A stretch of DNA of 64,000 nucleotides from a bacterium (GCA_021786945.1 JAJYMK010000003.1:240361-304360), one strand, 5' to 3'; positions 35,410 to 54,537 are shown, counted from the first letter of the stretch. Notes: generated by a model from the letters alone, not told the origin. Numbers and translations: made by a program.

Positions 35410-35446
35410 AAAATCCCCGCTTTCTTGCGGGGATTTTGATTTATAT
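35410..35446. terminator. Bidirectional rho-independent terminator
   Basis: A 9-bp stem (aatccccgc / gcggggatt) with a 6-nt loop and flanking A and T runs. It lies between convergent thrS and the 73-aa gene. Confidence 0.6.
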
Positions 35447-35448
35447 TT

Positions 35449-35670: not shown

Positions 35671-35671
35671 A

Positions 35672-37144
35672 TTAAATATTTTCTTTAAATAATTTTTTTA
35701 AAACTTCGGGATTACCTCGGCCTTTTAAAGCTGCCATAGCTTTTCCTATTAAAAACATAACCGCCTGATCTTTTCCGCTCTTCAAATCACCGGCTGCTTT
35801 AGGATTTTCTTTTAGAATTTTCACTACCAATTCATGAAGCCCGGCTTCGTCAGAAATCTGTCCTAAACTTTCGGTTTTAACTATTTCCCTAGGATCTAGG
35901 CCTGTATCAATCATCCTAACTATCAAATCTTTAGCCACCCTGCTGGAAATCTCTTTTTTGGCTATCATATCGATAAGATCGGCAAAATTTTCAGGATCAA
36001 CTTTACTTTCTGAAAACCCTATTCCTTTGGCCATTAAAAGACCTCTCAAATCGGTAGATAGATAATTAAGAGTTAATTTTATTTTTTCCGAATTTATCTC
36101 TTCTTGTTCATCGCCTTCCAATTCCGACACCGCCTGCTCAAAATAATTGGACATTTCTCTGTCATCAATCAGCATTCCAAGCATGTCCTGAGAAATTTTA
36201 TATTGTTCGGCAAATCTTTTTCTTTTTGCTTCTGGCAATTCAGGAATTTCCAATTTTAATTTTTCGATATCAAATCCACTCTTTGTAAACGGAGGCAGAT
36301 CGGGCTCGGGAAAATATCTGTAATCATGGGCTTGTTCCTTCGAACGCTGGGCAATCGTTTTTTGTTTTATATCGTCCCACCCTCTGGTTTCCTGGTTAAC
36401 TTTGCCGCCTTCTTCCAATATTTCAGTCTGACGTTTTATTTCATAATTTATAGCACTCTCAAGAGCGCTAAAAGAATTAAGATTTTTAATTTCCGCCCTA
36501 GTGCCCAGTTTTTCATCAGGACTAATTGAAATATTAGCGTCAAAACGCATTTGCCCTCTTTCTAAATCAGCTGTAGAAACACCGAGATAACGCAAAAGAA
36601 GCTGCAATTCCCTGCCATAAGCCACCGCTTCCTCGGCACTATGGATATCCGGCTCCGAAACCAATTCCATGAGCGGTACTCCACCACGATTAAAATCTAC
36701 AAAAGTAATCTCTTTACCGTTTTCGTCTTTACCATGAACCAATTTACCGGCATCTTCCTCAAGATGGACTCTGTTTATTTTGATTATTCTATTTTTTCGG
36801 ATTCTGCTGGAAATATCCAAACTTCCGCCCTTAACTATCGGCAAATCAAACTGTGAAATCTGATAACCCTTTGGAAGATCGGGGTAAAAATAATTTTTCC
36901 TGTCGAATTTAAAATTTTCGTTAATTTCTCCGCCTATAGCCAAACCAATCTTAATCATGAATTCAATGGCTTTTTTGTTCAAAACCGGTAAAACTCCGGG
37001 GTGGCCAAGACAGACCGGACAAACATTTGTGTTTGGCCTTTTTTCGTCGGGATTATTCGGACAATCACAAAAGACCTTAGTCTTCGTATGAAGCTCGGCG
37101 TGCACTTCCAAACCTATTGTCGGCAAATATTTATGCATATTCAA
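35672..37144 (-). CDS. gatB: Asp-tRNA(Asn)/Glu-tRNA(Gln) amidotransferase subunit B
   Basis: The N-terminus IGLEVHAELHTKTKVFCDCPN...VCPVCLGHPGVLP is colinear with GatB. A C-terminal GatB/YqeY-type domain is present. 490 aa. Confidence 0.9.
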   Translation of the reverse strand: MNMHKYLPTIGLEVHAELHTKTKVFCDCPNNPDEKRPNTNVCPVCLGHPGVLPVLNKKAIEFMIKIGLAIGGEINENFKFDRKNYFYPDLPKGYQISQFDLPIVKGGSLDISSRIRKNRIIKINRVHLEEDAGKLVHGKDENGKEITFVDFNRGGVPLMELVSEPDIHSAEEAVAYGRELQLLLRYLGVSTADLERGQMRFDANISISPDEKLGTRAEIKNLNSFSALESAINYEIKRQTEILEEGGKVNQETRGWDDIKQKTIAQRSKEQAHDYRYFPEPDLPPFTKSGFDIEKLKLEIPELPEAKRKRFAEQYKISQDMLGMLIDDREMSNYFEQAVSELEGDEQEEINSEKIKLTLNYLSTDLRGLLMAKGIGFSESKVDPENFADLIDMIAKKEISSRVAKDLIVRMIDTGLDPREIVKTESLGQISDEAGLHELVVKILKENPKAAGDLKSGKDQAVMFLIGKAMAALKGRGNPEVLKKLFKENI

Positions 37145-37955: not shown

Positions 37956-38207
37956 ATGTCCGATGAAATAAAAAAGTACTCGGTGCAGGAATGTATACTG
38001 GCAATCAGAAGCGATCCCGACAGCCAATACGGATTCAAAGATGAACAAGTACTGAATATTTTCCTGGACACGGAAATAAAATCAGAAGAAGATATAAATA
38101 AACTGCTCAAAGAAATGATTTCTTTCAGAAAAAAACTGAAAGAGAAAATCTGCGAAGAACTATCCAAACGCAGAGATGTTCTCAAAAATAAAAAACCGCC
38201 TCTATAA
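37956..38207 (+). CDS. Hypothetical small protein (83 aa)
   Basis: An SD (aaggag) lies 7 nt upstream of the ATG at 37956. A terminator hairpin (aaccgcct / aggcggtt) overlaps the stop. Confidence 0.4.
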   Translation: MSDEIKKYSVQECILAIRSDPDSQYGFKDEQVLNIFLDTEIKSEEDINKLLKEMISFRKKLKEKICEELSKRRDVLKNKKPPL

Positions 38208-38261
38208 GGCGGTTTTTCTTTTATTATCAATCCGTATTAATAACTCCCCCAAAATATAAAA

Positions 38262-39491
38262 TTAATTTTTAAGACAACGGACAGAAAAACCATAATTTTT
38301 ATCATTATTAGTAACTCGAACAACCGAAGAAGAATTAGCGTATAAGTCGCGTTCCAGGGCGTTATTTCCCGATGCAACTGACGCCCACATATTTACAACA
38401 CTTGAACGATTATTAAATAAACCATTTGTACCACGCCACCCAGCAAGAATACCGGAAAAACCAGTCGAATTATCACCATTTAATGTATAAGAAGAGAGGT
38501 GGCTTCCGGCAGGACTACATTGCCAACCAGTACTTATTTCACAGCCAGGAGTTCCTGCCGCATACTCAACAAGAGTCTTCCATTCCGTATCTGTAGGAAT
38601 GTGCCAACCGTTAGGACAGATGCCTTGAGCTCCAATGGTAGTGGAATATTGCATAGCTTCATTCCATTGATAAAGACCGCCGTCGGTTAAACAGTTAGCA
38701 TCCAAATCTGAATAACAATATTTTTCTATCATACCGTTATCGGTTTGATTGGAAACTCCGGCAATTCTTGTCCCAATATTCATATTTTGTGTCATCCAGC
38801 ACTGCGTGCCGATTAACGCAGTTAGATAAGTCTTACCACCATAATTAACTGATGCTGGGCAAACACCTAAGTTTGTATTCAAAGTCAAATCATTCCCCGT
38901 TTCAAATCTGGTTGAAGATGAGCCTCCATCAGATGTAGCACTAGTAGCAAGATATTTGTCAGATTCCATGGTAGCTGAAAGAGCCCAGGAACCGTGAATA
39001 TAGGTATAGTAATAACCATTGGTAGCAGCTGTGGATAGATCGGATGCTTGAATTGGATCTATCGGAAGATTAGAAAAAAGAGTTCCGGCTTGGGATTGTA
39101 TTGAGGTAAGGTCTACGGGTATCCAGCCGGTGCCATCTACATTTCTGTAGCTGGCAGAAGTGGAACAATGATAATTCCAGCCAGTGGAGGTGGCTGTAAG
39201 TTTGCCGTAGTAGGAACCGCATTGAGGATCTGTATCTGGAAGAGAAATATAAATAATATTGCTATTGCCCATAGCATTGCTATTGCCTCCGAAAGCCTGG
39301 AACAACATCAAGGCTTTGTTTATCTGATTGAGTTCCGTGATTCTATTGGCATCTCTGGATTGTTTGACTAACTGAGCTGGGTTTATGACTAAGAGGACTG
39401 TTGTGGCTAGGACTGCTAATATACCTATGACTATGAGGAGTTCTATGAGGGTGAAGGCTTTTCGGGATTTGAATCTTGAATAATATTTCAT
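38262..39491 (-). CDS. Type IV pilin-like protein with C-terminal FISUMP-like (Fibrobacter succinogenes major paralogous) domain
   Basis: The N-terminal class III signal and pilin helix is RKAFTLIELLIVIGILAVLATTVLLVINP. The C-terminal ~190 aa match the FISUMP pattern (GKTY..IG.QCWM.QN ... GLYQWNEAM ... CPNGWHIPTDTEW..L ... NYGFSVRCL). 409 aa. Confidence 0.75.
   Translation of the reverse strand: MKYYSRFKSRKAFTLIELLIVIGILAVLATTVLLVINPAQLVKQSRDANRITELNQINKALMLFQAFGGNSNAMGNSNIIYISLPDTDPQCGSYYGKLTATSTGWNYHCSTSASYRNVDGTGWIPVDLTSIQSQAGTLFSNLPIDPIQASDLSTAATNGYYYTYIHGSWALSATMESDKYLATSATSDGGSSSTRFETGNDLTLNTNLGVCPASVNYGGKTYLTALIGTQCWMTQNMNIGTRIAGVSNQTDNGMIEKYCYSDLDANCLTDGGLYQWNEAMQYSTTIGAQGICPNGWHIPTDTEWKTLVEYAAGTPGCEISTGWQCSPAGSHLSSYTLNGDNSTGFSGILAGWRGTNGLFNNRSSVVNMWASVASGNNALERDLYANSSSVVRVTNNDKNYGFSVRCLKN
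38877..39491. repeat. Dispersed repeat copy A: conserved pilin N-terminal module (about 615 bp)
   Basis: It is about 88% identical at the DNA level to 53923-54537. A more diverged third copy lies at about 43960-44562. Confidence 0.8.
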
Positions 39492-39645
39492 AATAATTAA
39501 ATTAATTATAACAAAAATTCATAAGCAAATTTCAACAATATTAAAAATATTTTAAAAAATTAACTTTTATGGATAAGTTTGAGCAATAAAAAAGCCCTGC
39601 ATTTTAGCAGAGCTTAATTATTTAGTTTTGCGATATTTCCGAGGA

Positions 39646-40071
39646 TTACTTCTCTACCTCAATCCCCATATTACGGGCAGTTCCTTCAATAATCTTCATG
39701 GCAGCCTCAACATCATAAGCATTGAGATCAACCATCTTTCTTTCGGCTATTTTTCTGACATCTTCTTTGGTAACTTTACCAACTTTTTGAGTCAAAGGAT
39801 TGGCAGCGCCCTTCTCTATGCCAGCGGCTTTTTTAAGCAAAGCTGAGGCTGGAGGGGTTTTAAGCTTGAAATCAAAACTCCTATCTTCATAAATGGTGAT
39901 TTCGGCCGGAACAACATCTCCGATCATTTCCTTGGTGGCATCATTAAATTTCTTGCAGAAATCCTGAATATTCACACCGTGAGGACCAAGAGCGGTACCT
40001 ACCGGAGGAGCCGGATTTGCCTTTCCAGCTTCCAACTGTAATTTTAAAATTGTTTTAATTGGTTTAGCCAT
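39646..40071 (-). CDS. rplK: 50S ribosomal protein L11
   Basis: 141 aa, colinear with L11 ([26 protein letters not shown] ...). Confidence 0.9.
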
Positions 40072-40133
40072 AATTTTTTAATAATTTATTTTAAACATTC
40101 ATGCGGATAAGAGGTAATATCCGCCTGATCCGT

Positions 40134-40715
40134 TTACACTTTTTTAATCTGTAATGAATCCAGCTCGACAACAGTATCTCTTCCGAAAATTGGGACCAAT
40201 ACTTTTATCTTGCCCTTCTCTTCATCCACCTCGGAAACTTTAGCGTCGTAATCTTTAAAAGGTCCGTCGGTGATTTTAACTACGTCACCAACTCGGATAT
40301 CAACCTTAAACCTTGTTTCCTTATTGCCCATTCTGGCCATTAATACATCAATTTCTTCCTTGGAAAGCGGAACCGGAGTGGTTGAATCCGGGCCTACGAA
40401 ACCAGTAACTCTTGGGGTATTTCTTACAACATACCAGGAATCTTCGGTAAGAATCATGTCAACCAAAACATATCCGGGATAAATCTTTTCTTCAGCTACC
40501 CTTCTCTTACCATTTTTAATTTTAACCTTAGTCTCTTTTGGAACCAAAATATTGAAAATCTTGTCGTTCATAGCCAAAGAATCCACCCTCTGTTTCAGAT
40601 ATCGGGCTACAGCATCTTCATAACCAGAATAAGTATGCACTGCATACCAATGCCTCTCTTTTTTTTCTTCTATCATTTTTTCTTTTCCGGTTGCCGGATT
40701 TTTCTTAAGCTCCAT
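40134..40715 (-). CDS. nusG: Transcription termination/antitermination factor NusG
   Basis: An NGN domain (WYAVHTYSGYEDAV...PGYVLV) and a KOW domain (VGDVVKITDGPFKDYDAKV). 193 aa. Confidence 0.9.
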   Translation of the reverse strand: MELKKNPATGKEKMIEEKKERHWYAVHTYSGYEDAVARYLKQRVDSLAMNDKIFNILVPKETKVKIKNGKRRVAEEKIYPGYVLVDMILTEDSWYVVRNTPRVTGFVGPDSTTPVPLSKEEIDVLMARMGNKETRFKVDIRVGDVVKITDGPFKDYDAKVSEVDEEKGKIKVLVPIFGRDTVVELDSLQIKKV

Positions 40716-40720
40716 ATCTT

Positions 40721-40903
40721 TTAAATAAATAATCCCAATAATTTAGTAAAAGCGTAGTCTAAAGCCCCTAAATAAATAGCAGCTGCCAAAGAAATAAAAA
40801 CGACAATAAGCGTCATTCTAATTGTTTCGGCTTTAGTTGGCCACTCCACCCTTTTAAGCTCTTGCTTGGATTCTTGTACAAAAGCAATAAATTTAGAAAA
40901 CAT
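40721..40903 (-). CDS. secE: Preprotein translocase subunit SecE
   Basis: 60 aa with a single C-terminal TM. The KRVEWPTKAET motif is present. It occupies the canonical secE-nusG-rplK position. Confidence 0.75.
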   Translation of the reverse strand: MFSKFIAFVQESKQELKRVEWPTKAETIRMTLIVVFISLAAAIYLGALDYAFTKLLGLFI

Positions 40904-40964
40904 CTGTTTTGATTTAAATTTAATTATAAAAATTTACCACAAAAAACCAAAAATGTCCAGGAGA

Positions 40965-42938
<1,974 letters not shown>

Positions 42939-43103
42939 TTAAAAAAAGCTATAATCGCCTTTTTTTTATTACAAATTTAAACCTTTTTATATGTAAATTA
43001 TAGCATAAACACACTTAATTAACCAGTAATTTTATGATGATTTTTGTTGACAATTTTTAATATAAAAATTAATCTTCTGGGTAGAACATTAAAGGGGGTC
43101 AAA

Positions 43104-43310
43104 ATGGAAAATAAAGAAGAAAATAATTTCGATATACCTCAGGATTCGAGCTCAAATTCTCCTGTTTCTCACGGGCACAAAGAAAAAGACTGCTGGTGTA
43201 AACAAAACGCCAATAATCCCCTCTGTATCCCCAAAGAAACGCCCAGCGGAACACACTGGATCCGCAGACATATGGATATGAGCGAAATAGCTGATATTCT
43301 CGGTCTTTAA
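43104..43310 (+). CDS. Hypothetical small Cys/His-containing protein (68 aa)
   Basis: An SD (aaggggg) lies 5 nt upstream of the ATG at 43104. An upstream TTGACA ... TATAAA promoter-like pair is present. A terminator hairpin sits at 43320-43346. Confidence 0.35.
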   Translation: MENKEENNFDIPQDSSSNSPVSHGHKEKDCWCKQNANNPLCIPKETPSGTHWIRRHMDMSEIADILGL

Positions 43311-43311
43311 A

Positions 43312-43347
43312 AAAAATAAAACCGCTCATAATGAGCGGTTTTTTTGC
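43312..43347. terminator. Bidirectional rho-independent terminator
   Basis: A 10-bp stem (aaccgctcat / atgagcggtt) with a 1-2 nt loop, between an A8 run and a T7 run. Confidence 0.6.
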
Positions 43348-43350
43348 TGA

Positions 43351-44562
43351 TTAATACGAACAAGCACAACTTGTCTGCCTGTTGCAATTGTAATAACAAA
43401 CAGAAGGAAAACTGCCATAGCTATACCAGCTTGAATACCAATATTTACCGCCGCAATAAACAGACGTACCGCTTATCCAAGAATTACTCGGACAAATTTT
43501 TGAGCAACCATTGAATCCAGAAATAATAGAGCAAACAGTTGTATTAGATTGACAACCCAAAGCAGAAGATGAACCAGCGGAAGCATTATCACTAGCATTA
43601 AAATATTTATATGTTCCTCCCGCAACCCATTGGCAAGAACTATTATATCCATAAGTTGTAGATGTGTAGCCTGGCGAACAAATAGCCGTACCGATACCGC
43701 TTTTATTTCCAATACCATTAGCATTTTTTGCTGCAATCTCATAAAAATAACTCGTGGCTGGATTAATTGTTGTGTCTGAATAAGTTAAAACATCGCCAAC
43801 TTCAATCAAAAAAGTTTCAGGATCGGATAAACTTCCCCTATAAATTTCATAATTAGTTATTGTTGACCCGCCATCATTCAGGGGCGCTACCCAGGTCAAT
43901 ACAACTTGAGAGCTATCTGCCGTTGCCACAACTGTTTGCGGAACAGAAGGCAAAGAAGATCCTCCACCACCACTAGCTAAATTAATATCAAGGGCTAAAT
44001 TATTTCCCAACTCGAACCTTGTATCAGAAACTCCTCCATCGTTAATAGCGGTTGAAGAAAGATATTTATCAGATTCAAGAGTAGCAGAAAGAGCCCAGGA
44101 ACCAGGGATATAGGTGTAGTAGTAGCCGTTGGCTACGGTATTGACTGGATCTATAGGAAGACTGGAGAAAAGAGTTCCGGCAGAAGATTGGACTGAAGAT
44201 AGATTGACTGGTATCCATCCATTGCCGTCAATATTGCGATAATGTTCAAAATCCGAACAATGATACTGACCGCTACTTAAAACCGGGAGACCAAGGTCGG
44301 AACAATCAGCTTGGGCGCTGGGTAAAGATACGTAGACATCTCCATGAGTACCCATACTGGTACTACCTCCGAAGGATTGATACAAAAGTAAGGCGCCATT
44401 TAATTGATTAATTTCTGCTATTCTATTCCCATCCCTGGATTGTTTAACTAATTGAACTGGATTTATAACTAAGAGGGTTGCCGTAGCTAAAATGGACAAA
44501 ATACCAACTACAATCAAAAGCTCAATAAGAGTAAATCCCAAAAAATAATTTTTCTGAAACAT
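43351..44562 (-). CDS. Type IV pilin-like protein with fibronectin type III-like and Cys-rich C-terminal domains
   Basis: The N-terminus is GFTLIELLIVVGILSILATATLLVINP. About 60% aa identity to the other two pilins over the first ~200 aa. A FN3-like block (VVLTWVAPLNDGGSTITNYEIYRGS) precedes a C-terminal ~110 aa holding about 14 Cys. 403 aa. Confidence 0.7.
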   Translation of the reverse strand: MFQKNYFLGFTLIELLIVVGILSILATATLLVINPVQLVKQSRDGNRIAEINQLNGALLLYQSFGGSTSMGTHGDVYVSLPSAQADCSDLGLPVLSSGQYHCSDFEHYRNIDGNGWIPVNLSSVQSSAGTLFSSLPIDPVNTVANGYYYTYIPGSWALSATLESDKYLSSTAINDGGVSDTRFELGNNLALDINLASGGGGSSLPSVPQTVVATADSSQVVLTWVAPLNDGGSTITNYEIYRGSLSDPETFLIEVGDVLTYSDTTINPATSYFYEIAAKNANGIGNKSGIGTAICSPGYTSTTYGYNSSCQWVAGGTYKYFNASDNASAGSSSALGCQSNTTVCSIISGFNGCSKICPSNSWISGTSVYCGGKYWYSSWYSYGSFPSVCYYNCNRQTSCACSY

Positions 44563-44574
44563 TAAAATAAAAAG

Positions 44575-45315
44575 CTATTGATCTTTGTAGTGAACAAAAT
44601 CGAATTTTTCTATATCATAAACAATATTTTTTCGTTCAACCACAATTCTCCATCCGTGTTTTTTGGCATAATCAACTAAAACGCCATCTGGATTAAAAGC
44701 AATTGGTTTTCCGACTAATTCAAGCATGGAAATATCCGTAGCGCTATCACCTACGGCAACCGATTTTTTCCAATCCGGATCTATATTTAAATTTTCTACA
44801 ATCTTCATCAATAACTTACTTTTCTGATTATAGCTGTCTCTCTGTGTAAACTTGTTAGTAAACATTCCATCTTTGACTTCCAAATCACTGCCAAATGCCA
44901 TATCAAAACCCATTCTCTTGGCGAAGTCCTTAACCATAAACATTGGCGAACCTGAAATGGCAATTAAATAATAACCTTGCTTTTTAAGATCTTTAACCAA
45001 ATCTCTGGTGAAACGATAAACTTTTAATTTTTGCTTGGCCATAACCTTCTTTCCCACTTCCAAAACTTCCTTCTTTTTACAGCCCACAATATGCCTGAAA
45101 TAAACTTCAGCAACTTTATTTATATAAGAATCGTAATTTGCAATGCGATTCAGCCAGGCATGATAATCGTCTTCTATTTCATCTTCGGCTTTTTTCAAAA
45201 AAATTCTGTCTTTTACCAAACCATTCACAAGCTCAATAAGCAAAGACGATCTAAAAATTGTCCCATCTATATCAAAAACGGCAATTTTTAATTTTTTATT
45301 TTTTATTTTAGCCAT
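44575..45315 (-). CDS. HAD-superfamily hydrolase (phosphoserine phosphatase-like subfamily IB)
   Basis: Motif I is VFDIDGTI and motif IV is GDSATDISML. 246 aa. Confidence 0.65.
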   Translation of the reverse strand: MAKIKNKKLKIAVFDIDGTIFRSSLLIELVNGLVKDRIFLKKAEDEIEDDYHAWLNRIANYDSYINKVAEVYFRHIVGCKKKEVLEVGKKVMAKQKLKVYRFTRDLVKDLKKQGYYLIAISGSPMFMVKDFAKRMGFDMAFGSDLEVKDGMFTNKFTQRDSYNQKSKLLMKIVENLNIDPDWKKSVAVGDSATDISMLELVGKPIAFNPDGVLVDYAKKHGWRIVVERKNIVYDIEKFDFVHYKDQ

Positions 45316-45327
45316 ACTTATATCTTA

Positions 45328-46497
45328 TCAGATATTGTATTGTTTTTTAACCTCGTCAAAAGCGGATTTATCTTTATCGGCAATAGGTTTACCATCTGGA
45401 ACTTCGATCGTAAACGGATTTACGAATGTCCCAAATTTATGAATTTCATAATGTAAATGCGGACCCGTAGAATTACCGGTAGAACCAACGTAGCCAACCA
45501 CCTGCCCCTGTTTAACAGTAGTCCCTCTTTTTATTCCCTTAGCCAAACCCTCAAAATGCCCGTATACACTAGTATACATATCGTTATATCTGATAGTCAC
45601 GGAAATTCCGTATTGGCCATTCCACCCAGCTTGCGTAACGGTTCCGTCACCTATAGCAACAACTGGAGTGCCATAATTAGCCACCAAATCAACGGCTCTG
45701 TGGGCATGATAATAAGTTTCCGTTACCGGATCTAAACGCTTATAAGTAAAACCAGAACTTATATATTTATACTGTAACGGTGATTTTAAAAATACCTTCT
45801 GAAGAGACTTCCCGTTTTCATCATAATAACCATCTTTATCATCACTTGTTTTAAAATAATATCCGAGATATTGCTGCCCGGCATTATTGAATTTGGCCGC
45901 CAAAATTTTACCTGGCATTACATACCCTCCATTCAAATATCTTTTTTCATAAATAACTTTAAAGCTATCGCCTTTTTGAATATCGCCCACAAAATCTATT
46001 TGCCAAGCAAAAGCCTCGGCCAAAGCAATTGCTAATCTGTTATCGAGTCCCTGCCCAACAATTGTTTCATATAAAGAAGATTCTATTATTCCTTCAGCTG
46101 TAGATACTTCAACCTGATATTCTATCGGTTTTTTTTCAGCTAACCATTCCTCGGTTGAGGTGGATGTATTTTTGACAACAAGTTCTTCTTCGGTATTTAT
46201 ATCATAATCAAGCTCTTTTAAATCGTTTGTATTCTTATCAAAAACAAAAACCAACTCCTTACCCTCTCTTATGTTAGACAAATCATAAACGCCCTTACTA
46301 CTCGAAAAAATTGCCTCAGCTGTTCCGGTTGCAACACCGGCCTGACTGGCAATAATACTAAAAGTTGAACCTGACAAAATCTCTTTTTTTACAATAAAAT
46401 TAGGGTCTTCCTGAACGGTAACGCTGCTTTTCAAAAAAATAAAAACTGATCCAAGAACCACTCCTGTTGCGGCTAAAATTTTTCCTATTAAAGGCAT
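45328..46497 (-). CDS. M23 family metallopeptidase (peptidoglycan endopeptidase)
   Basis: An N-terminal TM helix. M23 motifs HRAVDL ... GSTGNSTGPHLHYEI are present. 389 aa. Confidence 0.8.
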   Translation of the reverse strand: MPLIGKILAATGVVLGSVFIFLKSSVTVQEDPNFIVKKEILSGSTFSIIASQAGVATGTAEAIFSSSKGVYDLSNIREGKELVFVFDKNTNDLKELDYDINTEEELVVKNTSTSTEEWLAEKKPIEYQVEVSTAEGIIESSLYETIVGQGLDNRLAIALAEAFAWQIDFVGDIQKGDSFKVIYEKRYLNGGYVMPGKILAAKFNNAGQQYLGYYFKTSDDKDGYYDENGKSLQKVFLKSPLQYKYISSGFTYKRLDPVTETYYHAHRAVDLVANYGTPVVAIGDGTVTQAGWNGQYGISVTIRYNDMYTSVYGHFEGLAKGIKRGTTVKQGQVVGYVGSTGNSTGPHLHYEIHKFGTFVNPFTIEVPDGKPIADKDKSAFDEVKKQYNI

Positions 46498-46534
46498 ATA
46501 TAAAAACTACTATAAAATACAATCTATGCCAAAT

Positions 46535-48121
46535 CTAGTAATTATAGATGCTTGTATTTGGCTCGATTTGAGGTGTAGAAATTGGGCTAATAGACGATGA
46601 GGACGTAGCTATAAGCGGAACAACAGGACTAACTGTTCCGGAATTAACCCGATTGTCAGTTGGGGTGTTTCCGGGCCCGCACTCTCCCCTAAAGTAAGCC
46701 CATTCCTCACACTTAGATCCATCCGGAAAAATACAAACTCCATATTGACTGCCGTCTATATTTGAAATTATCTGATTTTTATATCCCTGCCTTGCACAAT
46801 AGACTGAGGCCGGGTTGGCAATCCCCGTATTCGTTTCTACGTCTATAACACTTGGCAAAGGCGCTTCTCCGGTATTTTCAGGGTTAATACAAATACTGTA
46901 AGAAATATCAGACCTGTCCTCTTTTAATCCAAAGCAGCACGGCTTATTTACCGGCCCCAACAAAGGATCTCTATTAACTCTTTCCCCGGCCTTTCCGCAT
47001 TCAGGTTCCTTGAAAAGCACGGGAGAAGTTGAAGAAGCTAGAGGAACTTTAATCGCGCCTCCGTCACACTCACCTTTAAATTTAATTACGACTCCAATAT
47101 TTTTTGCCACACATTCGTTAGAATAAGTTTTTCCATCAGCTCCGCATACAGGATTATACTCCATCGTACAAAAACCTTGTTCTGCGGGCCTATTTGATAC
47201 AGCGTTCGTAGAGGATGATACAACTTGATTTTCTATTTTAGGAACAGGCATCATCGCACTCTCTTTTAAATCTTGAATAATGATATTTCTTTGTAAGACA
47301 TCATTTATCGGAACCGCTTGAATCAATTTTTGAACCGTTGAAGATCCGGAAATTTGGCTTTTTTCCGAAATAACCCGATTTAAATTGTCTTCAATTTTTA
47401 GACGCACCTGTTCCAATGCCAATTTAGCTTCTTCTGGAGCATGGGCCTCTATGCTATTTATAATTTCCAAAGATCGAAGATGTTTCAAATCACTTCCTTT
47501 AGAATCCATAAGGGCGGTATCCAAATTAGCCGCAAAACCGATTGGATTCTCTTTGGCTACAATCACAGCCGATTCGTCTATTTGTTTTTTTGCGGAACTT
47601 ACCGCCGCTTGCACATCCTTATTGTCACCGGCACCTAAAGCAATTTCATCCAATACTTTTTCATGTAAAACAACATTATTTGCAACTAAACCTACCAAAT
47701 TTCCAATATCTGGAGTAGAAGATGCAATATTCAAAGACTCAAGGGTATTTTTAAGCTCTTCCTGGGCAGTCTTAAAATTTTCAACTCCTTTTATAATAGC
47801 TAAATTATTGTTCGGAGTTGTCTCCTGAATTTTTTTTGCTTCCGCGGCTTTTTCGTTTACAATACCCAACTCAAGTTTAGCTTTTGACACGGGGTCAAAG
47901 GTTAAAGCCAGTTGAACTTTTCTTTTTAATTCTTTTAAAAAATAAAAAGGGTTGGTCGGTAAAATTCCTGGATCGGAAACACCCAAATCAGAAGCGGAAA
48001 TACTCTCTGCTTTTTGAATAGATTCTGGAGTAATCGCAACTGAATTTGTAGCTGTTTGAGCATGTATTTGGCCCGAAAAACAAAACACAAATAACGATAA
48101 TACTATTATTATTTTTTTCAT
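46535..48121 (-). CDS. Secreted protein with Kazal-type inhibitor-like domain and C-terminal DUF333-like domain
   Basis: A signal peptide (MKKIIIVLSLFVFCFSGQIHA). A Kazal-like segment (CTMEYNPVCGADGKTYSNECVAKNIGVVIKFKGEC). A DUF333-like segment (NPASVYCARQGY...GVCIFPDGSKCEEWAYFRGEC). 528 aa. Confidence 0.6.
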   Translation of the reverse strand: MKKIIIVLSLFVFCFSGQIHAQTATNSVAITPESIQKAESISASDLGVSDPGILPTNPFYFLKELKRKVQLALTFDPVSKAKLELGIVNEKAAEAKKIQETTPNNNLAIIKGVENFKTAQEELKNTLESLNIASSTPDIGNLVGLVANNVVLHEKVLDEIALGAGDNKDVQAAVSSAKKQIDESAVIVAKENPIGFAANLDTALMDSKGSDLKHLRSLEIINSIEAHAPEEAKLALEQVRLKIEDNLNRVISEKSQISGSSTVQKLIQAVPINDVLQRNIIIQDLKESAMMPVPKIENQVVSSSTNAVSNRPAEQGFCTMEYNPVCGADGKTYSNECVAKNIGVVIKFKGECDGGAIKVPLASSTSPVLFKEPECGKAGERVNRDPLLGPVNKPCCFGLKEDRSDISYSICINPENTGEAPLPSVIDVETNTGIANPASVYCARQGYKNQIISNIDGSQYGVCIFPDGSKCEEWAYFRGECGPGNTPTDNRVNSGTVSPVVPLIATSSSSISPISTPQIEPNTSIYNY

Positions 48122-48180
48122 ATATTTAACTAAAAATAGGCTTTAATGATCTACAATGTAATTATAGCAAAATAAGATTG

Positions 48181-49080
48181 CTAAATCCCGCTATTCAATA
48201 ATTCGGAAAAGGCCCCAACACAATCCTTTTTATCTAAAACAATACTCTTTAAAGCAGACAGAAACCAGAATTTTTTATATTTATTGCCAAGAAGACCTAC
48301 CAAGGAATAAATAGACTTATAACCCTCGCTTTCAAGGCAGCAAATGCCTGTTTTCGCCAATTTTTCTCCGACTTCTCTATTCCTAGAAAAACTGCTAAAA
48401 GCCGTAGCGATAAAATCTGACATGCCGGCGTCGTCAAAAACTGTTTTTTTATTTCCGCCCATCTCAACTACCATTTCCGACATTTCTTGGATAGCCAAGG
48501 AAGTAAGCACGCCCTTGGTATTGTTTCCTAAATTAAGCCCATCGCAAATACCCAGACCCAATGAATATATATTTTTTAAAACACCGCAAATAGCCACCCC
48601 TCTTAAATCGGAAGAATATTTTATATTTAAATCCGTGCCTTTAAAAATTTCAGAAATGAATTTAAAGTATTTTTTATTTTTACAGGCAAAAACGGCAAAA
48701 CCTTTTTTGCCGGATGATATTTCTTCGGCGAGCATAGGACCGCTGAGTAAACCAAAAGGCTGGTGCTTATTAAAGCTTTCCCCCAAAACCAAATCCATAG
48801 TTTTCATTTTTTCGGACTCTATCCCCTTGGATAAGGAAACAATCAAAGAATTTTTAGACAAATAACATTCGATATTTTTTGCGGCATCCCTTACGCACCA
48901 AGAAGGAACACATAAAAAAATTATTTCCGCGGAAGAAATAACCGTCTTCAATTTGTATATTTCATCTTTTTTATCCCAAACCCCAATAGACAAACCAGGC
49001 TTATTTTCCAATATTTTATGAATAGCCCTACCAAGCTCCCCGTAACCGATTATGGCTATTTTTTTATTTTTATTATCCAT
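48181..49080 (-). CDS. gpsA: NAD(P)H-dependent glycerol-3-phosphate dehydrogenase
   Basis: The N-terminal Rossmann motif is IAIIGYGELG. The blocks SKGIE, SGPMLAEEI, GVLKNIYSLGLG and SFSRNREVG align with GpsA. Confidence 0.7.
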   Translation of the reverse strand: MDNKNKKIAIIGYGELGRAIHKILENKPGLSIGVWDKKDEIYKLKTVISSAEIIFLCVPSWCVRDAAKNIECYLSKNSLIVSLSKGIESEKMKTMDLVLGESFNKHQPFGLLSGPMLAEEISSGKKGFAVFACKNKKYFKFISEIFKGTDLNIKYSSDLRGVAICGVLKNIYSLGLGICDGLNLGNNTKGVLTSLAIQEMSEMVVEMGGNKKTVFDDAGMSDFIATAFSSFSRNREVGEKLAKTGICCLESEGYKSIYSLVGLLGNKYKKFWFLSALKSIVLDKKDCVGAFSELLNSGI

Positions 49081-49092
49081 TTTTATTTAGAA

Positions 49093-49977
49093 CTAAGGCT
49101 GTAAAGCTGTTTCCGAATTACCGTCAACTGAAATAATTACGCTCCTAACGGTTTTATCGAATGCATAAATGGTTTTAATGATCTGAGCCCGAATAGCCCC
49201 AACTCTGCAAGAACCACCCAAATTATTTTCAATCTCTTTACCAAAATCAACTTTTACCGTAATACCTTCTTTTTCGATGTAATTAATCTTTGAATTTTCC
49301 GGAATACTGGTGTAATAACCAGAATCTCTGTCTTTTTCGCCAACTCCACCAAGAAGAGATTCTATTGCGCCCCTCATTGTTACCGGCTCATTCCCTGAAG
49401 ATTTTATTAACGGAAAAACTTTAATGCAGCTAATTTCCGGATCGAGTTTGTTGTTGGAATAATAAACCTCGTAATAATCTTTTAAATTTCTATCAAAATT
49501 AAGGGGTATTTTTACAACATCAATTTTGCTGCCGTCTTTTGCGGAATAGTCAAAAACTTGGGCCTCGATATTAGTTCCGGCTTCATCGGGAATAGCCGCA
49601 TTTATTTCGAATTGCCCAAAAAGACCCGCATCGGCAGAATTGGCATATGCGGTACCGCTAATAATTTCTTTTTTTGTATTAGCTTCTAAGATAGACCAAT
49701 TTAGCTGATTTTCAAAAACCCTTGCAATTCCCCGAATAACCAAATTCTTTCCCACTTTTTGTCCGGCTAAAGGCGAATTAACAACAATATTGGCTTCTAT
49801 TTTCTGTGCCTGGCCAGGACAATCTTCGGAAGGCTTAATGGAATCAGGATTTCCATGACTTACCCAGTCACCATCAACGCAAATCCAATAATTATCCTGA
49901 TTTAAAAAGCGGATCGCTCCAATAATCAAAACAATTATTAATAGAGACAAAATACCAATCAATATCTTTTTTGCCAT
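49093..49977 (-). CDS. Hypothetical membrane-anchored protein with GerMN/Gmad2-like domains
   Basis: An N-terminal TM, then two beta-rich regions resembling the Gmad2 and GerMN lipoprotein domains. This is a weak, pattern-based call. Confidence 0.4.
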   Translation of the reverse strand: MAKKILIGILSLLIIVLIIGAIRFLNQDNYWICVDGDWVSHGNPDSIKPSEDCPGQAQKIEANIVVNSPLAGQKVGKNLVIRGIARVFENQLNWSILEANTKKEIISGTAYANSADAGLFGQFEINAAIPDEAGTNIEAQVFDYSAKDGSKIDVVKIPLNFDRNLKDYYEVYYSNNKLDPEISCIKVFPLIKSSGNEPVTMRGAIESLLGGVGEKDRDSGYYTSIPENSKINYIEKEGITVKVDFGKEIENNLGGSCRVGAIRAQIIKTIYAFDKTVRSVIISVDGNSETALQP

Positions 49978-49982
49978 TTTTA

Positions 49983-51185
49983 TTAACTATAAAGCTTAAT
50001 AAGTTCATCGAACTTAACAATTCTTTCACGTACCGGGGCACCTATTTTTACCGCATCCACGTTTCCGGCCTTAGCTAAATGAATTATAAAAACATCCTCA
50101 GTTTCACCGGAACGATGAGAAACAATTGTTTTTAATCCGTTTTCTTGAGCAACTCTTATAGCCGAACAAGTTTCCGAAACAGTACCAATCTGATTGGGTT
50201 TTATGATAACAGCGCTGATCAATTTTTCTTTGGCAAATTTTTCAATAAATTCAGGATTAGTTACGGTAAGATCGTCTCCTACAATCCATTTGTCTGGGCA
50301 TTTAGCATTAAAATTCTTAAAACCAGACATATCCTCTTCATCAAAAGGATCTTCAATAGACATCAACAAACTGGAATTTACTAAATAATCCAGAAGAATT
50401 TGATTTAATTTCTGGGAAGAAATTTGATTTCCTCCAAAATTATATTTATCGTCTTTATAAAAATTTGAAGCCGCAACATCAAGGGCTAAAGAAAAAATAT
50501 CCTTGAATCCACCCGAAACTATCATGCTTTCCAATATTTTTACCGGCTCAAAATTATTTTCAAAATTTATTGCATATCCCCCCTCATCGCCAATAATCAA
50601 CTTATCCAATTTATATTTCGACTGTAAAAATTTACCCAATTCCTTATAAAAATCAATTAAAATCTTAATCGAAGCCGCATAATCCTGATCTTTTGAATCT
50701 ACTACAACCATATATTCCTGGATATCCAGATTATTTCCGGCATGAGCTCCGCCGTTTATGAGATTAGAAAAAATAAGCGGCCTCTTTTCAGAAATAAGAC
50801 CACCCCAAAATTCTTCCTTCAAAATTTGCCACAATTCTTTATTTTCTTTATGTGCTAAACCACGGGCAAAAGCTATAGAAACTCCCAGCATCAAATTGCC
50901 GCCTAGATTTTGTTTATTCAAGGTTCCATCCAAACGAATCAAAAAATTATCCAAATCCTTTATAGAGGAAAAATTCTTATGGATCAATTCTTTTTTCAGA
51001 ACCAGATCAACAACTTTTTTGGCTTCCGGAAAACTCAAAACAGTTGCTTCTTTTTTGCCCCGGCTTTTTCCCGATGGTATTTCTGCCGAAAAAGAATTTA
51101 ATTTTTCATCCAAAACTTCAACTTCTAAAGTTGACTCTCCCCTAGAATCAAATATTTCGTGGATTTTGATGTCTTCTAAAATCAT
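49983..51185 (-). CDS. eno: Enolase (phosphopyruvate hydratase), divergent
   Basis: SRGESTLEVEV sits near the N-terminus. The C-terminal block IKPNQIGTVSET ... SHRSGETED is colinear with enolase. 400 aa. Confidence 0.8.
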   Translation of the reverse strand: MILEDIKIHEIFDSRGESTLEVEVLDEKLNSFSAEIPSGKSRGKKEATVLSFPEAKKVVDLVLKKELIHKNFSSIKDLDNFLIRLDGTLNKQNLGGNLMLGVSIAFARGLAHKENKELWQILKEEFWGGLISEKRPLIFSNLINGGAHAGNNLDIQEYMVVVDSKDQDYAASIKILIDFYKELGKFLQSKYKLDKLIIGDEGGYAINFENNFEPVKILESMIVSGGFKDIFSLALDVAASNFYKDDKYNFGGNQISSQKLNQILLDYLVNSSLLMSIEDPFDEEDMSGFKNFNAKCPDKWIVGDDLTVTNPEFIEKFAKEKLISAVIIKPNQIGTVSETCSAIRVAQENGLKTIVSHRSGETEDVFIIHLAKAGNVDAVKIGAPVRERIVKFDELIKLYS

Positions 51186-51197
51186 AAATTTATAAAA

Positions 51198-52211
51198 TTA
51201 TTCAACTGCAATAAATTGTCCGCCGGATTCAAAACCTTTTATATTTTCCATAGTTGTATTTAAAATTCTTTGCAAAGCTTCTTCAGTATTGAAAGCATTG
51301 TGAGGGGTTAAAAGGACATTCGGCATTTCCATTAAAATATGGTCATAAAGCATATTTTTTACGACCTCTTCTTTTGGCCTTGTTTTCATAAGATAATTCA
51401 ATTCATCTTTCACTTCGCCTTCATCTTCCAGAACATCAGCTGCATATCCGCCCAAAATACCCTTCTTTAAAGCCACGATTAAAGCCTCGGTCTGAACTAT
51501 TGCCCCTCTGGCAGTATTCACCAAAAATGCACCTTTTTTAATAAACTGAAAGTTGTTTTCGTTTATAAGATGATGGGTGCTTGGGTTATAAACCGTATGA
51601 ATAGTAATCACATCGGAATTTTTCAATAAATCCTCTAAAGACACGTATTGGAAACCTAGCTCGGAAGCCGCCTTTACATCCTGATAAGCATCAAAGGCAA
51701 TTACATTCATCCCGAAACCTTTGGCTATTTTAATCGATTCTCTTCCTATTCTGCCCGTACCTATAACTCCCAAAGTTCTTCCTTTTATATCAATTCCCCT
51801 CATTCCCTCCAAAGAAAAACTTCCATTTTCTTTTATTTGATCAATGGACTGATAGAGTTTTCTGGTTAAATTCAAAATCAGACCAAAGGCATATTCAGCT
51901 ACGGTATTCATTCCGTAATTTGGCACATAGCCAATTTTTATTCCTCTTTCCTTGCAATATGCAATATCTATATGATCAAAACCAGTAGAACGCGTAGCGA
52001 TAAATTTTAAATCCGGAAATTGACTTAAAACTTCTTTATTTAAAATAGAGTTAACAAATACAGAAATAACTTCAAAATCTTTTTGAAGCGGAATATTTAA
52101 TGGCTCCAATTTGTCCTTACTGAAAAATAATTGATCTTTTATAAAATTATCCTGAAGAGTTTTATTTTCCCATCCCTCCAATTCAAAAAATCCTATTTTC
52201 ATCCCGCACAT
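51198..52211 (-). CDS. D-isomer-specific 2-hydroxyacid dehydrogenase (D-lactate dehydrogenase-like)
   Basis: The NAD-binding motif is GVIGTGRIGRESIKIAKGFGMNVIAFD. The catalytic R/E/H triad region is present. 337 aa. The start may instead be the second ATG at 52200-52202. Confidence 0.75.
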   Translation of the reverse strand: MCGMKIGFFELEGWENKTLQDNFIKDQLFFSKDKLEPLNIPLQKDFEVISVFVNSILNKEVLSQFPDLKFIATRSTGFDHIDIAYCKERGIKIGYVPNYGMNTVAEYAFGLILNLTRKLYQSIDQIKENGSFSLEGMRGIDIKGRTLGVIGTGRIGRESIKIAKGFGMNVIAFDAYQDVKAASELGFQYVSLEDLLKNSDVITIHTVYNPSTHHLINENNFQFIKKGAFLVNTARGAIVQTEALIVALKKGILGGYAADVLEDEGEVKDELNYLMKTRPKEEVVKNMLYDHILMEMPNVLLTPHNAFNTEEALQRILNTTMENIKGFESGGQFIAVE

Positions 52212-52332
52212 AACAAAGATTCGAAAGCAAAGCTTTCTTAGTCATTGTTTTTATTAATTATTATTTTAAACGACTTTATTTTTTATTTTGAATCTACACA
52301 TACAGATTAGTTATCTTTGTTATGTGCGGGAT
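52201..52332. repeat. 20-bp perfect inverted repeat pair flanking a 92-bp AT-rich spacer (MITE-like or regulatory hairpin)
   Basis: atcccgcacataacaaagat (52201-52220) is the exact reverse complement of atctttgttatgtgcgggat (52313-52332). The first arm overlaps the first ATG of the dehydrogenase gene. The spacer holds an internal 6-bp hairpin (gaaagc aaa gctttc). Confidence 0.6.
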
Positions 52333-52414
52333 TCATAAATTTATAATAAATTATTGCTAATATTTTTATTATAACAAAAATTCCCCCATTCTGTTATGAA
52401 TGAGGGAATTATTT

Positions 52415-52765
52415 TTATACCCATCCCAGCTTCCTACATCTCTTACAGGCATCTTTCTTTAATGATCTTTTTTTCGCCAGAGAAAAAAGAGTTTTTACGG
52501 AAATTTTTAGCTCTTTTTTCGCATCAAGATAGAGCCAATTACCCACTCCATCCACTATCGCGGCGCAAAGCACTTTTCTTTTTCCGCGGAAACCTATATA
52601 GGCTCCGCCGAATCTCCTGCCTATGCAAGGTTTGGAATGAGCCACCATGTAAGCATTTTTCAGGCGCTGCTCTTCCAGATGCTCATTCACATCCCCTTCT
52701 ACTTTATGCCAGACGAGCATACCGTCTTTTGTGAGTTTTATTACCCAATCAACGATTTCCTTCAT
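52415..52765 (-). CDS. Hypothetical protein (116 aa), GC-elevated
   Basis: A strong SD (ggaggtgag) directly precedes the ATG. It ends in a Cys-containing basic tail (CKRCRKLGW). I recognise no domain. Confidence 0.4.
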   Translation of the reverse strand: MKEIVDWVIKLTKDGMLVWHKVEGDVNEHLEEQRLKNAYMVAHSKPCIGRRFGGAYIGFRGKRKVLCAAIVDGVGNWLYLDAKKELKISVKTLFSLAKKRSLKKDACKRCRKLGWV

Positions 52766-52795
52766 CTCACCTCCTATTATCGAAATAATGCCGGA

Positions 52796-52948
52796 TTAGT
52801 AAAACTTCTTCGCCCTTGCTGCTTCCCGGCAAGCTTTAACGCCGAGCATGCTCAGCTGAATCCTGAGTCTTTCCAGCTCTTTATTTTGGCGCCGCAATTC
52901 TTCATCCTGCTTTTTTATTTTCCTCTCAAGCTCTTTTTTTGTAGCCAT
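52796..52948 (-). CDS. Hypothetical small coiled-coil protein (50 aa), not in the ORF track
   Basis: An SD (aaggag) lies 6 nt upstream of the ATG. The translation is MATKKELERKIKKQDEELRRQNKELERLRIQLSMLGVKACREAARAKKFY. It is co-oriented with and 30 nt upstream of the 116-aa gene. Confidence 0.4.
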   Translation of the reverse strand: MATKKELERKIKKQDEELRRQNKELERLRIQLSMLGVKACREAARAKKFY

Positions 52949-53043
52949 CTATTTCTCCTTTATTGATTACCGAAATTATTTAAATGTAAAAGAACACTTT
53001 TTTGATTTAAAAAGCTTATCAAGTTTGTATAAAAAACACAAGA

Positions 53044-54537
53044 TTATTTCTGACCGTTATAAATAGCCAACGCCTCATCAGCTGTAAGAGCGCGGTTATA
53101 AACAGCTACTTCGTCAATTTTTCCGCCATAAGGCTGATTTAATGCTCCGCCAATACTATCCCTTTTAGCTCCAACTTGCTGAGGGTAACTTCCAAGATTA
53201 GAACATAGTCCCGCTGTTCCAAAAGAACCGGTTTTATCTAATTGTCCATTGATATAAATATTTGCCACGCCAGTAGTTTTATCGTACGTAACTAAAATAT
53301 GAGTCCATGTATTTAAACTAATCGTTGTTACCGACCAAATATTTGGAGTATTTGAGCAGTCGGTAGAAACCATCCAATTTACTTCTGAAGTATAGGGAGA
53401 CATTACTTCTGGAGAAGCAAGAACTAACTGGTATTGTCTAGCAGTAATACCGCTCCAATACCACCTAGAAGCCAAGGCATCCCACCAACCATCCATAGGC
53501 AAAGTTGTTCTATATACCCACAAAGAAATTGAAATTGAAGATGCAGCTAAAGAAGGCAGGGGCTGATCAACTGCAGAAATAAGACTTGAATCAAAATTCA
53601 AAGCTCCATTTACTTTTCCTGAAGTCCAAGACGCGCCATTATATAAAGTTCCTGTATAGCCATTTCCGCTAGAATCAGATGCGGATGTTCCGCTGCCATC
53701 ATCAAACTTCCAATAACCGACAAGTCCGCTCGTCGGAATCTGATAAGTACAAGCACTGGTATTGAAGCTCAGACAATCGGCATTGCATGAAAGAGTTCCG
53801 GTGTATCCGACACCTAGCTGAGTGGCGCAGGTCTGGGAATTGAGGTCGGTACCGTCACAGGTTTCTCCGGTCTCTTTGAGGTTGTTGCCGCAAGTGGCTC
53901 CGGCTATACCTCCTCCAAGATTCGCATTCAACGTCAAATCATTTCCGAGTTCAAATCTAGTACTGGATTGTCCTCCATCGGATACGGCATTAGCGGCAAG
54001 GTATTTGTCGGATTCCATGGTAGCAGAAAGAGCCCAGGAACCGTGGATATAGGTATAGTAATAACCATTGGTAGCGGCAGCGGATAGATCGGATGCCTGA
54101 ATGGGATCTATGGGAAGATTTGAGAATAAAGTTCCGGCTTGTCCTTGTATAGAACTTAGATCTACAGGTATCCAGCCTGTACCGTCTATATTTCTGTAGT
54201 TGGCAGAGGTGGAGCAATGATAGTTCCAGCCTGTGGTGGTGGCTGTAAGTTGGCCGTAGTAGGAACCGCATTGGGAATCTGTATCCGGAAGAGAGATATA
54301 TATCGTATTACTATTACCCATAGCCGTGCTGGATCCTCCGAAAGACTGGAAGAACAACAAAGCTTGGTTTATCTGATTTATTTCTGTGATTCTATTGGCA
54401 TCTCTGGATTGCTTAACTAACTGAGCTGGGTTTATGACTAAGAGAACTGTTGTTGCTAAGACTGCTAATATACCTATGACTATCAGGAGTTCTATGAGGG
54501 TGAAGGCTTTTCTATTTTTATTCCAATTATTTAGCAT
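53044..54537 (-). CDS. Type IV pilin-like protein with C-terminal LamG/concanavalin A-like lectin domain
   Basis: The N-terminal 205 aa are about 90% identical to the pilin at 38262-39491. The C-terminal ~240 aa look like a LamG-like jelly-roll (LVGYWKFDDGSGTSASDSSGNGYTGTLYNGASWTSGKVNGALNFD ...). 497 aa. Confidence 0.75.
   Translation of the reverse strand: MLNNWNKNRKAFTLIELLIVIGILAVLATTVLLVINPAQLVKQSRDANRITEINQINQALLFFQSFGGSSTAMGNSNTIYISLPDTDSQCGSYYGQLTATTTGWNYHCSTSANYRNIDGTGWIPVDLSSIQGQAGTLFSNLPIDPIQASDLSAAATNGYYYTYIHGSWALSATMESDKYLAANAVSDGGQSSTRFELGNDLTLNANLGGGIAGATCGNNLKETGETCDGTDLNSQTCATQLGVGYTGTLSCNADCLSFNTSACTYQIPTSGLVGYWKFDDGSGTSASDSSGNGYTGTLYNGASWTSGKVNGALNFDSSLISAVDQPLPSLAASSISISLWVYRTTLPMDGWWDALASRWYWSGITARQYQLVLASPEVMSPYTSEVNWMVSTDCSNTPNIWSVTTISLNTWTHILVTYDKTTGVANIYINGQLDKTGSFGTAGLCSNLGSYPQQVGAKRDSIGGALNQPYGGKIDEVAVYNRALTADEALAIYNGQK
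53923..54537. repeat. Dispersed repeat copy B: conserved pilin N-terminal module
   Basis: About 88% DNA identity to 38877-39491, in the same orientation, 14.4 kb apart. Confidence 0.8.

Follow-up and report, generated by a model that had tools for sequence, protein, structure and literature searches.

The 64,000-nt stretch of bacterial DNA considered here (GCA_021786945.1 JAJYMK010000003.1:240361-304360; below, the window always means this whole stretch) carries three dispersed type IV pilin genes, A, B and C, which begin with variants of one pilin module and end in C-terminal domains that are mutually unrelated. We consider it quite probable that these three proteins, together with a fourth paralog (P0121) recorded on the same contigs and encoded in another part of the ~0.7-Mb genome, represent modular type IV pilins of a bacterium from the Patescibacteria (candidate phyla radiation, CPR), that a grafted binding domain is shown on the pilus, and that variants arise by recombination at the module borders.

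Each protein consists of a short leader, a complete "carrier" module of ~195 aa (the alpha1 helix and a small head of beta-sheet whose Cys pair is invariant), and, on a short linker, an "effector" domain of a ligand-binding type at the C-terminus. According to this interpretation, a prepilin peptidase encoded outside the window would cleave before Phe1, the alpha1 helix would insert the subunit into a type IV filament whose machinery is encoded elsewhere, and the grafted domain would be displayed on the pilus, most likely by a low-abundance subunit at or near the tip, where its targets would be glycans or proteins of a partner cell or of a surface. The need to fit one filament and one machinery would be the reason for the paralogs to retain the same module. 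New variants would come from recombination at two borders, the cleavage-site codons and the linker, either by gene conversion of the module or by replacement of the C-terminal domain, so that modules would be alike within a genome and effector domains would differ. The tip location, adhesion and host interaction are suggested by analogy with PilB and PilC of Streptococcus sanguinis and PilX2 of Saccharibacteria (see below).

Patescibacteria live attached to other microbes, and the way in which they recognize hosts is poorly understood; among their attachment devices, only type IV pili are backed by experiments. Several lectin-like domains on one pilin scaffold make concrete candidates for host-recognition adhesins. 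If the scaffold is indeed kept uniform by recombination and the binding domains are swapped, this would be a simple route to a changed host range, and a recombining scaffold would also explain the breaks of short-read assemblies at pilin genes. As the architecture itself has already been catalogued, the gain is incremental, and the part that goes beyond the catalogue is the recombination at module borders.

Three pilin genes with a common module

The pilin genes and their parts are as follows (all on the minus strand).

38262-39491, minus: pilin A, 409 aa; prepilin leader, pilin module and FISUMP domain (open reading frame, ORF; PF07963, PF09603 and TIGR02145 above cut-offs)
38868-39461, minus: mature pilin module of A, aa 11-208, one copy of the ~594-nt repeat (identity to the B module; repeat families D1-D3)
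38265-38837, minus: FISUMP domain of A, aa 219-409, 8 Cys, ends NYGFSVRCLKN (TIGR02145, PF09603)
43351-44562, minus: pilin C, 403 aa; leader, diverged pilin module, fibronectin type III (FN3) domain and Cys-rich tail (ORF; PF07963 and PF00041 above cut-offs)
43978-44541, minus: pilin module of C, aa 8-195 (63-65% aa identity to A and B)
43693-43953, minus: FN3 domain of C, aa ~204-290 (PF00041)
43354-43692, minus: tail of C, aa 291-403, 113 aa, 11 Cys, no known family
53044-54537, minus: pilin B, 497 aa; leader, pilin module, 6-Cys mini-domain and Laminin_G_3 (LamG) domain (ORF; Pfam; AlphaFold2 (AF2) model)
53917-54510, minus: mature pilin module of B, aa 10-207, second copy of the repeat
53749-53892, minus: 6-Cys mini-domain of B, aa 216-263, CGNN..E.CDG... 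(recurs in P0002, L010 and P0123; low predicted local distance difference test, pLDDT)
53047-53730, minus: Laminin_G_3 / ConA-like lectin-fold domain of B, aa 270-497 (PF13385; Foldseek)

An earlier note on this DNA had placed the three ORFs at exactly these positions. Aligned over 207 codons without large gaps, A and B have 86.5% identity as proteins and 83.4% as DNA; with the leader excluded, the part past the cleavage site gives 88.9% and 85.2% (594 nt, 88 differences). Of the figures given earlier, ~90% for the proteins and ~88% for the DNA, the latter is somewhat too high. The A-B homology starts at the codons for (R)KAFTL, that is, at the prepilin cleavage site, and ends just past RFE(T/L)GNDLTLN(T/A)NLG; the upstream DNA, the leader peptides and all downstream sequence are unrelated, as had been seen earlier for the part following TRFE(T/L)GNDLTLN. 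The module of C is more distant (62.6-64.9% protein and 62-63% DNA identity to A and B; the earlier estimate was ~60%). The Nei-Gojobori estimates for the A-B module are 0.61 for synonymous divergence (dS) and 0.16 for dN/dS, the ratio of nonsynonymous to synonymous divergence, and synonymous sites are saturated between A/B and C. The homology borders together with these values indicate that the repeated unit is the mature pilin module, which is under purifying selection, with an A-B split that is not recent; the similarity of the modules is far beyond chance. No module copies other than A, B and C were found in the 64-kb window by a six-frame motif scan and a repeat search. Moreover, there are no partial or truncated promoterless module cassettes in the window, every copy having a start codon, a leader and full length.

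The repeat could in principle be an assembly artefact, a collapse or a chimera, and such an artefact was one of the outcomes named in the earlier note as refuting its proposal. Other assemblies do break or turn mosaic at the module (L001, L013, L007-L010, L012). Still, the copies differ at 15% (A-B) and 37% (C) of sites, the three ORFs are intact, their flanks are distinct, and A, B and C are found on several independent assemblies: the exact A, B, C and P0121 proteins occur together on three NCBI contigs, the longest being 696,638 bp, and A occurs on eight contigs. Hence the A/B/C repeat in the window is not an assembly collapse, and an artefact of either kind is extremely improbable.

The module as a pilin

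In all three proteins a short polar leader is followed by (K/L)(A/G)-FTLIELLIV(I/V)GIL. This is the class III (prepilin) signal peptide of type IV pilins, with the motif KAFTLIELL in A and B and GFTLIELL in C, residue -1 being Ala in A and B and Gly in C, with Phe at +1, Glu at +5 and a stretch of about 20 hydrophobic residues. Profiles PF07963 (28-31.6 bits, cut-off 21.2) and TIGR02532 (23-25 bits, cut-off 16.3) match A, B and C.

The AF2 model of B, built on an alignment of 81 sequences, has a mean pLDDT of 80.5; the module and the LamG domain are confident, residues 211-265 are not, and 211-223 form a low-confidence linker. In the model of the module alone (pLDDT 86, predicted template modelling score 0.80), residues 14-65 form a helix, and only short strands and helices come after it. 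The module has the "lollipop" shape, a long N-terminal alpha1 helix lying against an antiparallel beta-sheet head. A Foldseek search with the module-only model yielded no neighbour, and matches of the module profile to solved structures (the Geobacter pilin, Thermus PilA4, GspG, S. sanguinis PilE1) involve only the alpha1 helix. The Cys pair C90 and C108 (B numbering) is invariant across the family. We read the module as a genuine, though strongly diverged, pilin head. A, B and C each combine this full module, through a short linker, with a separately recognizable domain of a binding type that is not specific to type IV pili, in line with the modular pilins suggested in the earlier note.

C-terminal domains

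The FISUMP domain of A is matched by TIGR02145 (115.1 bits, cut-off 41.65, E-value 5.6e-33, profile positions 8-176 of 176) and PF09603 (107 bits, cut-off 33.9, 1.8e-30); a sequence search found no relative of it in PDB.

In B, a mini-domain of ~45 aa with the pattern CGNN..E.CDG..L....C......Y.G.L.C...C..F....C, not mentioned in the earlier note, is placed between the module and the LamG domain. It has no Pfam family; the same mini-domain is present in P0002 and L010, and in five tandem copies in P0123, a 1443-aa pilin that also has Gly_rich_2 domains. The LamG domain that follows scores 78.6 bits with PF13385 (cut-off 27.6, 7.2e-22). Foldseek matches of the C-terminal half of the AF2 model are ConA-like jelly-rolls (E about 1e-11, probability 1.00), including the clostridial neurotoxin Hc, the carbohydrate-binding domain of the GH43 enzyme AbnA, and lectin domains of trans-sialidases. 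By profile and predicted fold, this domain of B belongs to the Laminin_G_3 / ConA-like lectin superfamily; sugar binding is putative. The fimbrial protein TafC (NF052521) was rejected as an assignment for B, as the match of 37.6 bits (at least 410 for the equivalog) covers only the LamG part.

The FN3 domain of C is marginal (PF00041, 28.6 bits, cut-off 25), and is retained in the ortholog P0261, which is also annotated with PF00041. The tail of C, Tyr-, Ser- and Gly-rich besides its cysteines, has no match in Pfam or PDB; among 5.8 billion proteins the only homolog is P0261 (70% identity), where part of the cysteines are not kept, and by this search the tail appears nearly orphan. The FISUMP, FN3 and LamG/ConA assignments had all been made correctly in the earlier note, each being above the curated cut-off, but the domain described there as having 14 Cys in C has 11.

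Family and host lineage

The search with the whole module yielded 967 proteins at E<=1e-5, whose source names are those of Patescibacteria (Pacebacteria, Wolfebacteria, Colwellbacteria, Saccharimonadales). When 1.84 billion representatives were searched with the head domain without alpha1, 1,013 clusters reached E<=1e-10, mostly of 390-450 aa; the protein sets searched consist of cluster representatives. The C-terminal types among 257 retrieved members are LamG homologous to that of B (109), FISUMP (7), Gly_rich_2 (7), the Cys mini-domain (6) and FN3/NHL (2-3). The module is complete in 212 members, 85 of which have an extension of 200-250 aa; in about 19 an extension is essentially missing, so that these resemble plain pilins belonging to the same family. 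The scan of metagenomes with the module profile gave one true family member among 80 loci, swamped by generic pilin N-termini, and the GTDB scan gave only relatives of 63-71% identity and not the species itself. The names of the relatives and the 696,638-bp contig carrying the genes support a reduced-genome Patescibacteria/CPR bacterium as the source, in agreement with the reduced genome assumed in the earlier note.

The census bears on two other interpretations of what the module does. One is that A, B and C are not filament subunits, and that the class III signal with the module only anchors surface lectins in the membrane or serves for their export; the archaeal "bindosome", whose sugar-binding proteins have pilin-type signal peptides, offers a comparison. 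The dispersion of the genes among housekeeping genes, far from any pilus operon, would fit this, as would the bulky domain on every copy in the window. A mere anchor, though, would not need the full head of ~140 aa with the invariant Cys pair, which is kept in more than 1,000 clusters; the members without extension, about 19 of the 212, are plain-pilin-like; and experimental precedents put such proteins in pili. We therefore regard an anchoring role as quite unlikely. The other is that every paralog makes a filament type of its own, in which it is the major subunit, with binding domains decorating the whole shaft and not the tip. The linkers, being Gly/Ser-rich and of low pLDDT, are favorable to such decoration, and CPR cells are not known to have an outer-membrane secretin, which would exclude bulky subunits. 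Yet known major pilins are small, the characterized modular pilins are minor subunits, and the module-only members of the family could themselves provide the major pilin, which makes decoration of the shaft unlikely.

Probable past recombination at module borders

Recombination is supported by the discordance between modules and C-termini. B and P0121 are 95-97% identical in the module and only 34-35% in LamG, and P0121 has no Cys mini-domain. In the metagenome-assembled genome (MAG) FK_Sedi_B_Bin.438, an FN3+NHL pilin (L004) and a FISUMP pilin (L005) have in common a stretch of ~580 nt (~99.5% identity) that begins and ends where the homology in the window does; the LamG pilin of this MAG (L002) is 82% identical to L004 and L005. 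In the MAG FK5.bin19, two contigs with differing upstream DNA and leaders both run into near-identical module DNA and end there, and two further contigs begin inside the module and go on into a FISUMP tail and a B-like Cys+LamG tail. The C-terminal types that go with a common module vary by genome (FISUMP and LamG here, FISUMP and FN3 in FK_Sedi), and C-terminal domains of the same type are only 27-52% identical across genomes. Four more discordant pairs were observed among the sampled proteins (module 81-89%, C-terminus 22-32%). In three lineages, the modules group by genome, not by C-terminal type. As module identity follows the genome and not the C-terminal type, past recombination at the module borders is supported as history by these comparisons, and in this respect the earlier suggestion that the module is a recombination substrate holds. 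The same suggestion does not hold for recent exchange between A and B, which the data given below do not support.

A simpler history is that of ordinary old paralogs, where an ancestral modular pilin was duplicated, the module was kept by purifying selection, and rare ancient fusions supplied the C-termini, with no ongoing or concerted recombination. The values for A and B (dS 0.61, dN/dS 0.16, evenly distributed differences and a longest identical run of 29 nt) and the saturated synonymous sites between A/B and C are what such a history would leave. On the other hand, purifying selection does not preserve synonymous sites, yet the DNA of L004 and L005 is ~99.5% identical; moreover, B and P0121 have an identity of 95-97% in the module, next to LamG domains that agree at only ~35%, and the grouping of modules by genome recurs in three lineages. 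Taken together, this makes divergence of old paralogs alone rather improbable.

Two other assemblies of this organism have a mosaic module at the B locus. Along more than 11 kb of flank, the 79.7-kb ENA contig k141_428511 (L001) agrees completely with the window, from which it differs by 35 substitutions and a frame-breaking 2-nt insertion, all in the B module (window 54499-54055; L001:72-560). Of the variant bases, 15 match A, including eight consecutive discriminating sites, and the others match neither A nor B; the last 71 nt of the contig (the 5' tip of L001) coincide with the leader of P0121. In a second sample, a 734-bp contig contains the true B upstream region and leader, followed by the same variant module with the same frameshift. 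The B-locus variant would be a true mosaic allele or, alternatively, a chimera of the paralogs that arises reproducibly in de Bruijn graphs.

Short-read contigs of relatives also end or begin in or beside the module (L007:3096-3387, L008:6001-6208, L009:1-153, L010:1-109, L012:1-20). A multi-copy module repeat in the genomes of the relatives would produce contig breaks at the module.

Several observations weigh against modular pilins diversified by border recombination. In the conversion-tract test (longest identical run, 10,000 permutations) the longest A-B run is 29 nt (P about 0.5), the differences are evenly spread, and no mosaic tracts between A and B were seen; with dS of 0.61 and such short runs, A and B would be poor, or weak, current recombination substrates. 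Short-read assembly, including graph collapse, could have inflated or even produced both the near-identical MAG repeats and the mosaic allele from ENA, and L004 and L005, with coverage of 8.1x and 4.2x, may not belong to one genome. Cluster representatives enrich for discordant module/C-terminus pairs, so the frequency of such pairs is not derivable from these searches. On the functional side, FISUMP has no known ligand, and neither pilus machinery nor a plain major pilin is visible in the window, which leaves filament assembly putative.

No synteny was found between the pilin loci of relatives and those of the window, so that conversion of the module and replacement of the C-terminal domain are indistinguishable. 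The evidence for concerted evolution of the carrier module among the paralogs, with the binding domains exchanged, is suggestive but unproven. In its full form, this idea would make the mature pilin module of dispersed CPR modular-pilin genes (from the cleavage site to the linker) a unit of concerted evolution, homogenized within the genome, behind which unrelated ligand-binding domains are exchanged, yielding mix-and-match adhesins on one pilus; the mosaic frameshifted B-locus allele would be a live example, possibly from an unseen or silent donor. We put this forward tentatively, as a possibility that we would not yet favor. A literature search gave no published work that deals with gene conversion or concerted evolution of pilin paralogs in CPR.

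Recombination between pilin gene copies that changes the exposed part of the subunit is well known from pilE/pilS of Neisseria, and a programmed antigenic or phase variation of this type, with one expressed locus and silent donor cassettes, could be considered here. In its favor, a frameshifted mosaic allele of the B locus occurs in two ENA assemblies, partly of the A type and partly matching no known copy, so that an unseen donor is possible. The Neisseria donors, however, are silent partial cassettes and the variable part lies within the pilin, whereas here the window copies are all complete genes, the set of silent truncated promoterless donors with one expression locus does not occur in the window, and what varies is an entire appended domain instead of a hypervariable loop. 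A programmed system of this kind is very unlikely.

Comparison with known systems

In what follows, IPR011871 and IPR003961 are the entries for FISUMP and FN3, respectively. The modular design of A, B and C is not new, all three architectures being already tabulated by Raynaud et al. (2021, PNAS, PMC8179133), who defined modular pilins and listed more than 1,200 such proteins in 264 architectures. In Dataset S1 of that paper the most frequent architecture is IPR012902-PF13385 (229 proteins), IPR012902-IPR011871 has 40 proteins and IPR012902-IPR003961 has 12, both likewise ranking high in frequency; the representatives in its Figure 8 include several CPR proteins (PMC8179133). As in A, B and C, the modular pilins of that census consist of an N-terminal pilin module, a short linker and a domain not specific to pilus biology. 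The census, however, deals with architecture only, without a near-identical carrier module common to dispersed paralogs of one genome, and the Cys mini-domain of B and the Cys-rich tail of C have no signature.

Two experimental systems are close by design. In S. sanguinis, PilC (a lectin) and PilB (vWA) likewise consist of a pilin module with a grafted binding module, and these minor pilins are modelled at the tip; the lectin of PilC is ConA-like and has sialylated glycans as ligands, and PilC has been modelled as part of a tip complex. There is no detectable sequence relationship between PilC and B (PilC is absent from the PDB sequence matches of B), and B is an analogue of PilC, not a sequence relative. 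Moreover, the S. sanguinis genes lie in a pil operon, whereas A, B and C are dispersed among housekeeping genes, and the pilin moiety of PilC is unusually short, unlike the full module of ~195 aa here. The second system is TM7x, where deletion of pilX2 lowers host binding (Grossman et al. 2025, PMC12206443). PilX1 and PilX2 are minor pilins of Patescibacteria with C-terminal beta-jelly-roll-like and 7-bladed beta-propeller domains, respectively, similar to A, B and C in design; they come from a different Patescibacteria class, have other domains, and are encoded inside type IV pilus loci (PMC12206443). With the Raynaud census and these precedents, both the architecture and the proposed role are already established.

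Genomic setting of the pilin genes

Transcription signals close to the pilin genes are as follows.

38190-38218, minus: terminator-like hairpin directly 3' of A, 13-bp stem followed by a T-run
43318-43342, minus: terminator-like hairpin directly 3' of C, 11-bp stem followed by a T-run
39492-39615, minus: upstream region of A, with the rplK terminator (39592-39615) and then the extended -10-like TGTTATAAT

The hairpins past A and C are strong. The starts of B and C are located 19 nt and 12 nt, respectively, past the stop of the upstream gene. The sequence GAATTTTTGTTATAA(T), which resembles an extended -10 promoter, is common to 39480-39520, upstream of A, and 52343-52383, upstream of a 2-hydroxyacid dehydrogenase gene. 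A 116-aa ORF without Pfam match (52415-52765, minus) lies between B and the next terminator and may be co-transcribed with B.

The 46 window ORFs scanned are nearly all those of at least 110 aa, and encode housekeeping proteins: PBP2, MreB (two copies), MreC, ProRS-like, RseP-like, MurA, ribosomal proteins, RpoA, AlaRS, RmuC, SMC, Maf, RNase III, NusB, DnaE, ThrS, GatB, Tmk, L11, NusG, GyrB, HAD, an M23 peptidase, GpsA, enolase, 2-hydroxyacid dehydrogenase, PEP synthase and a MacAB-like transporter. PilB, PilC, PilD, PilT and PilM were not found among them, in line with the earlier note as regards the first four. The pilin genes are thus single genes inside housekeeping arrays; the relative P0122 is likewise solitary, flanked by genes for a Mur ligase and FBP aldolase. 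No Rfam or tRNA matches were found in the window.

The ORFs at 56979-63081, whose sizes would fit PilT, PilC, PilD and PilB, were rejected as such, and encode instead a DUF4147/MOFRL-family protein, two MacB-type permeases, an ABC ATPase and an HlyD-like protein. The permeases are tandem paralogs (58293-59531 and 59569-60807; MacB_PCD and FtsX, with blocks of 71-83% nucleotide identity), and the ATPase and the HlyD-like adaptor (60813-61529 and 61531-63081) adjoin them, resembling a MacAB-like exporter with a duplicated permease.

At 46535-48121 there is a 528-aa secreted-looking protein with DUF5667, a Kazal-type protease-inhibitor motif and DUF333, a weak paralog of which (31% identity) is located near the pilin in L005. 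Two full-length MreB paralogs are encoded at 3017-4063 and 9002-10009, the first adjoined by genes for MreC (2322-3002) and PBP2 (18-1865). In the region 28000-36000, the G+C content is locally 0.41-0.46 (~0.35 elsewhere), the GC skew flattens, and the coding strand switches, with dnaE (29750-32950) and thrS (33649-35406) on the plus strand. Sizeable ORFs without a Pfam match are 11203-12663 (plus), 18167-19375, 8253-8987, 22877-23542 and the already mentioned 52415-52765 (all minus); the first of these, of 486 aa, overlaps the 5' end of a murA-like gene on the opposite strand.

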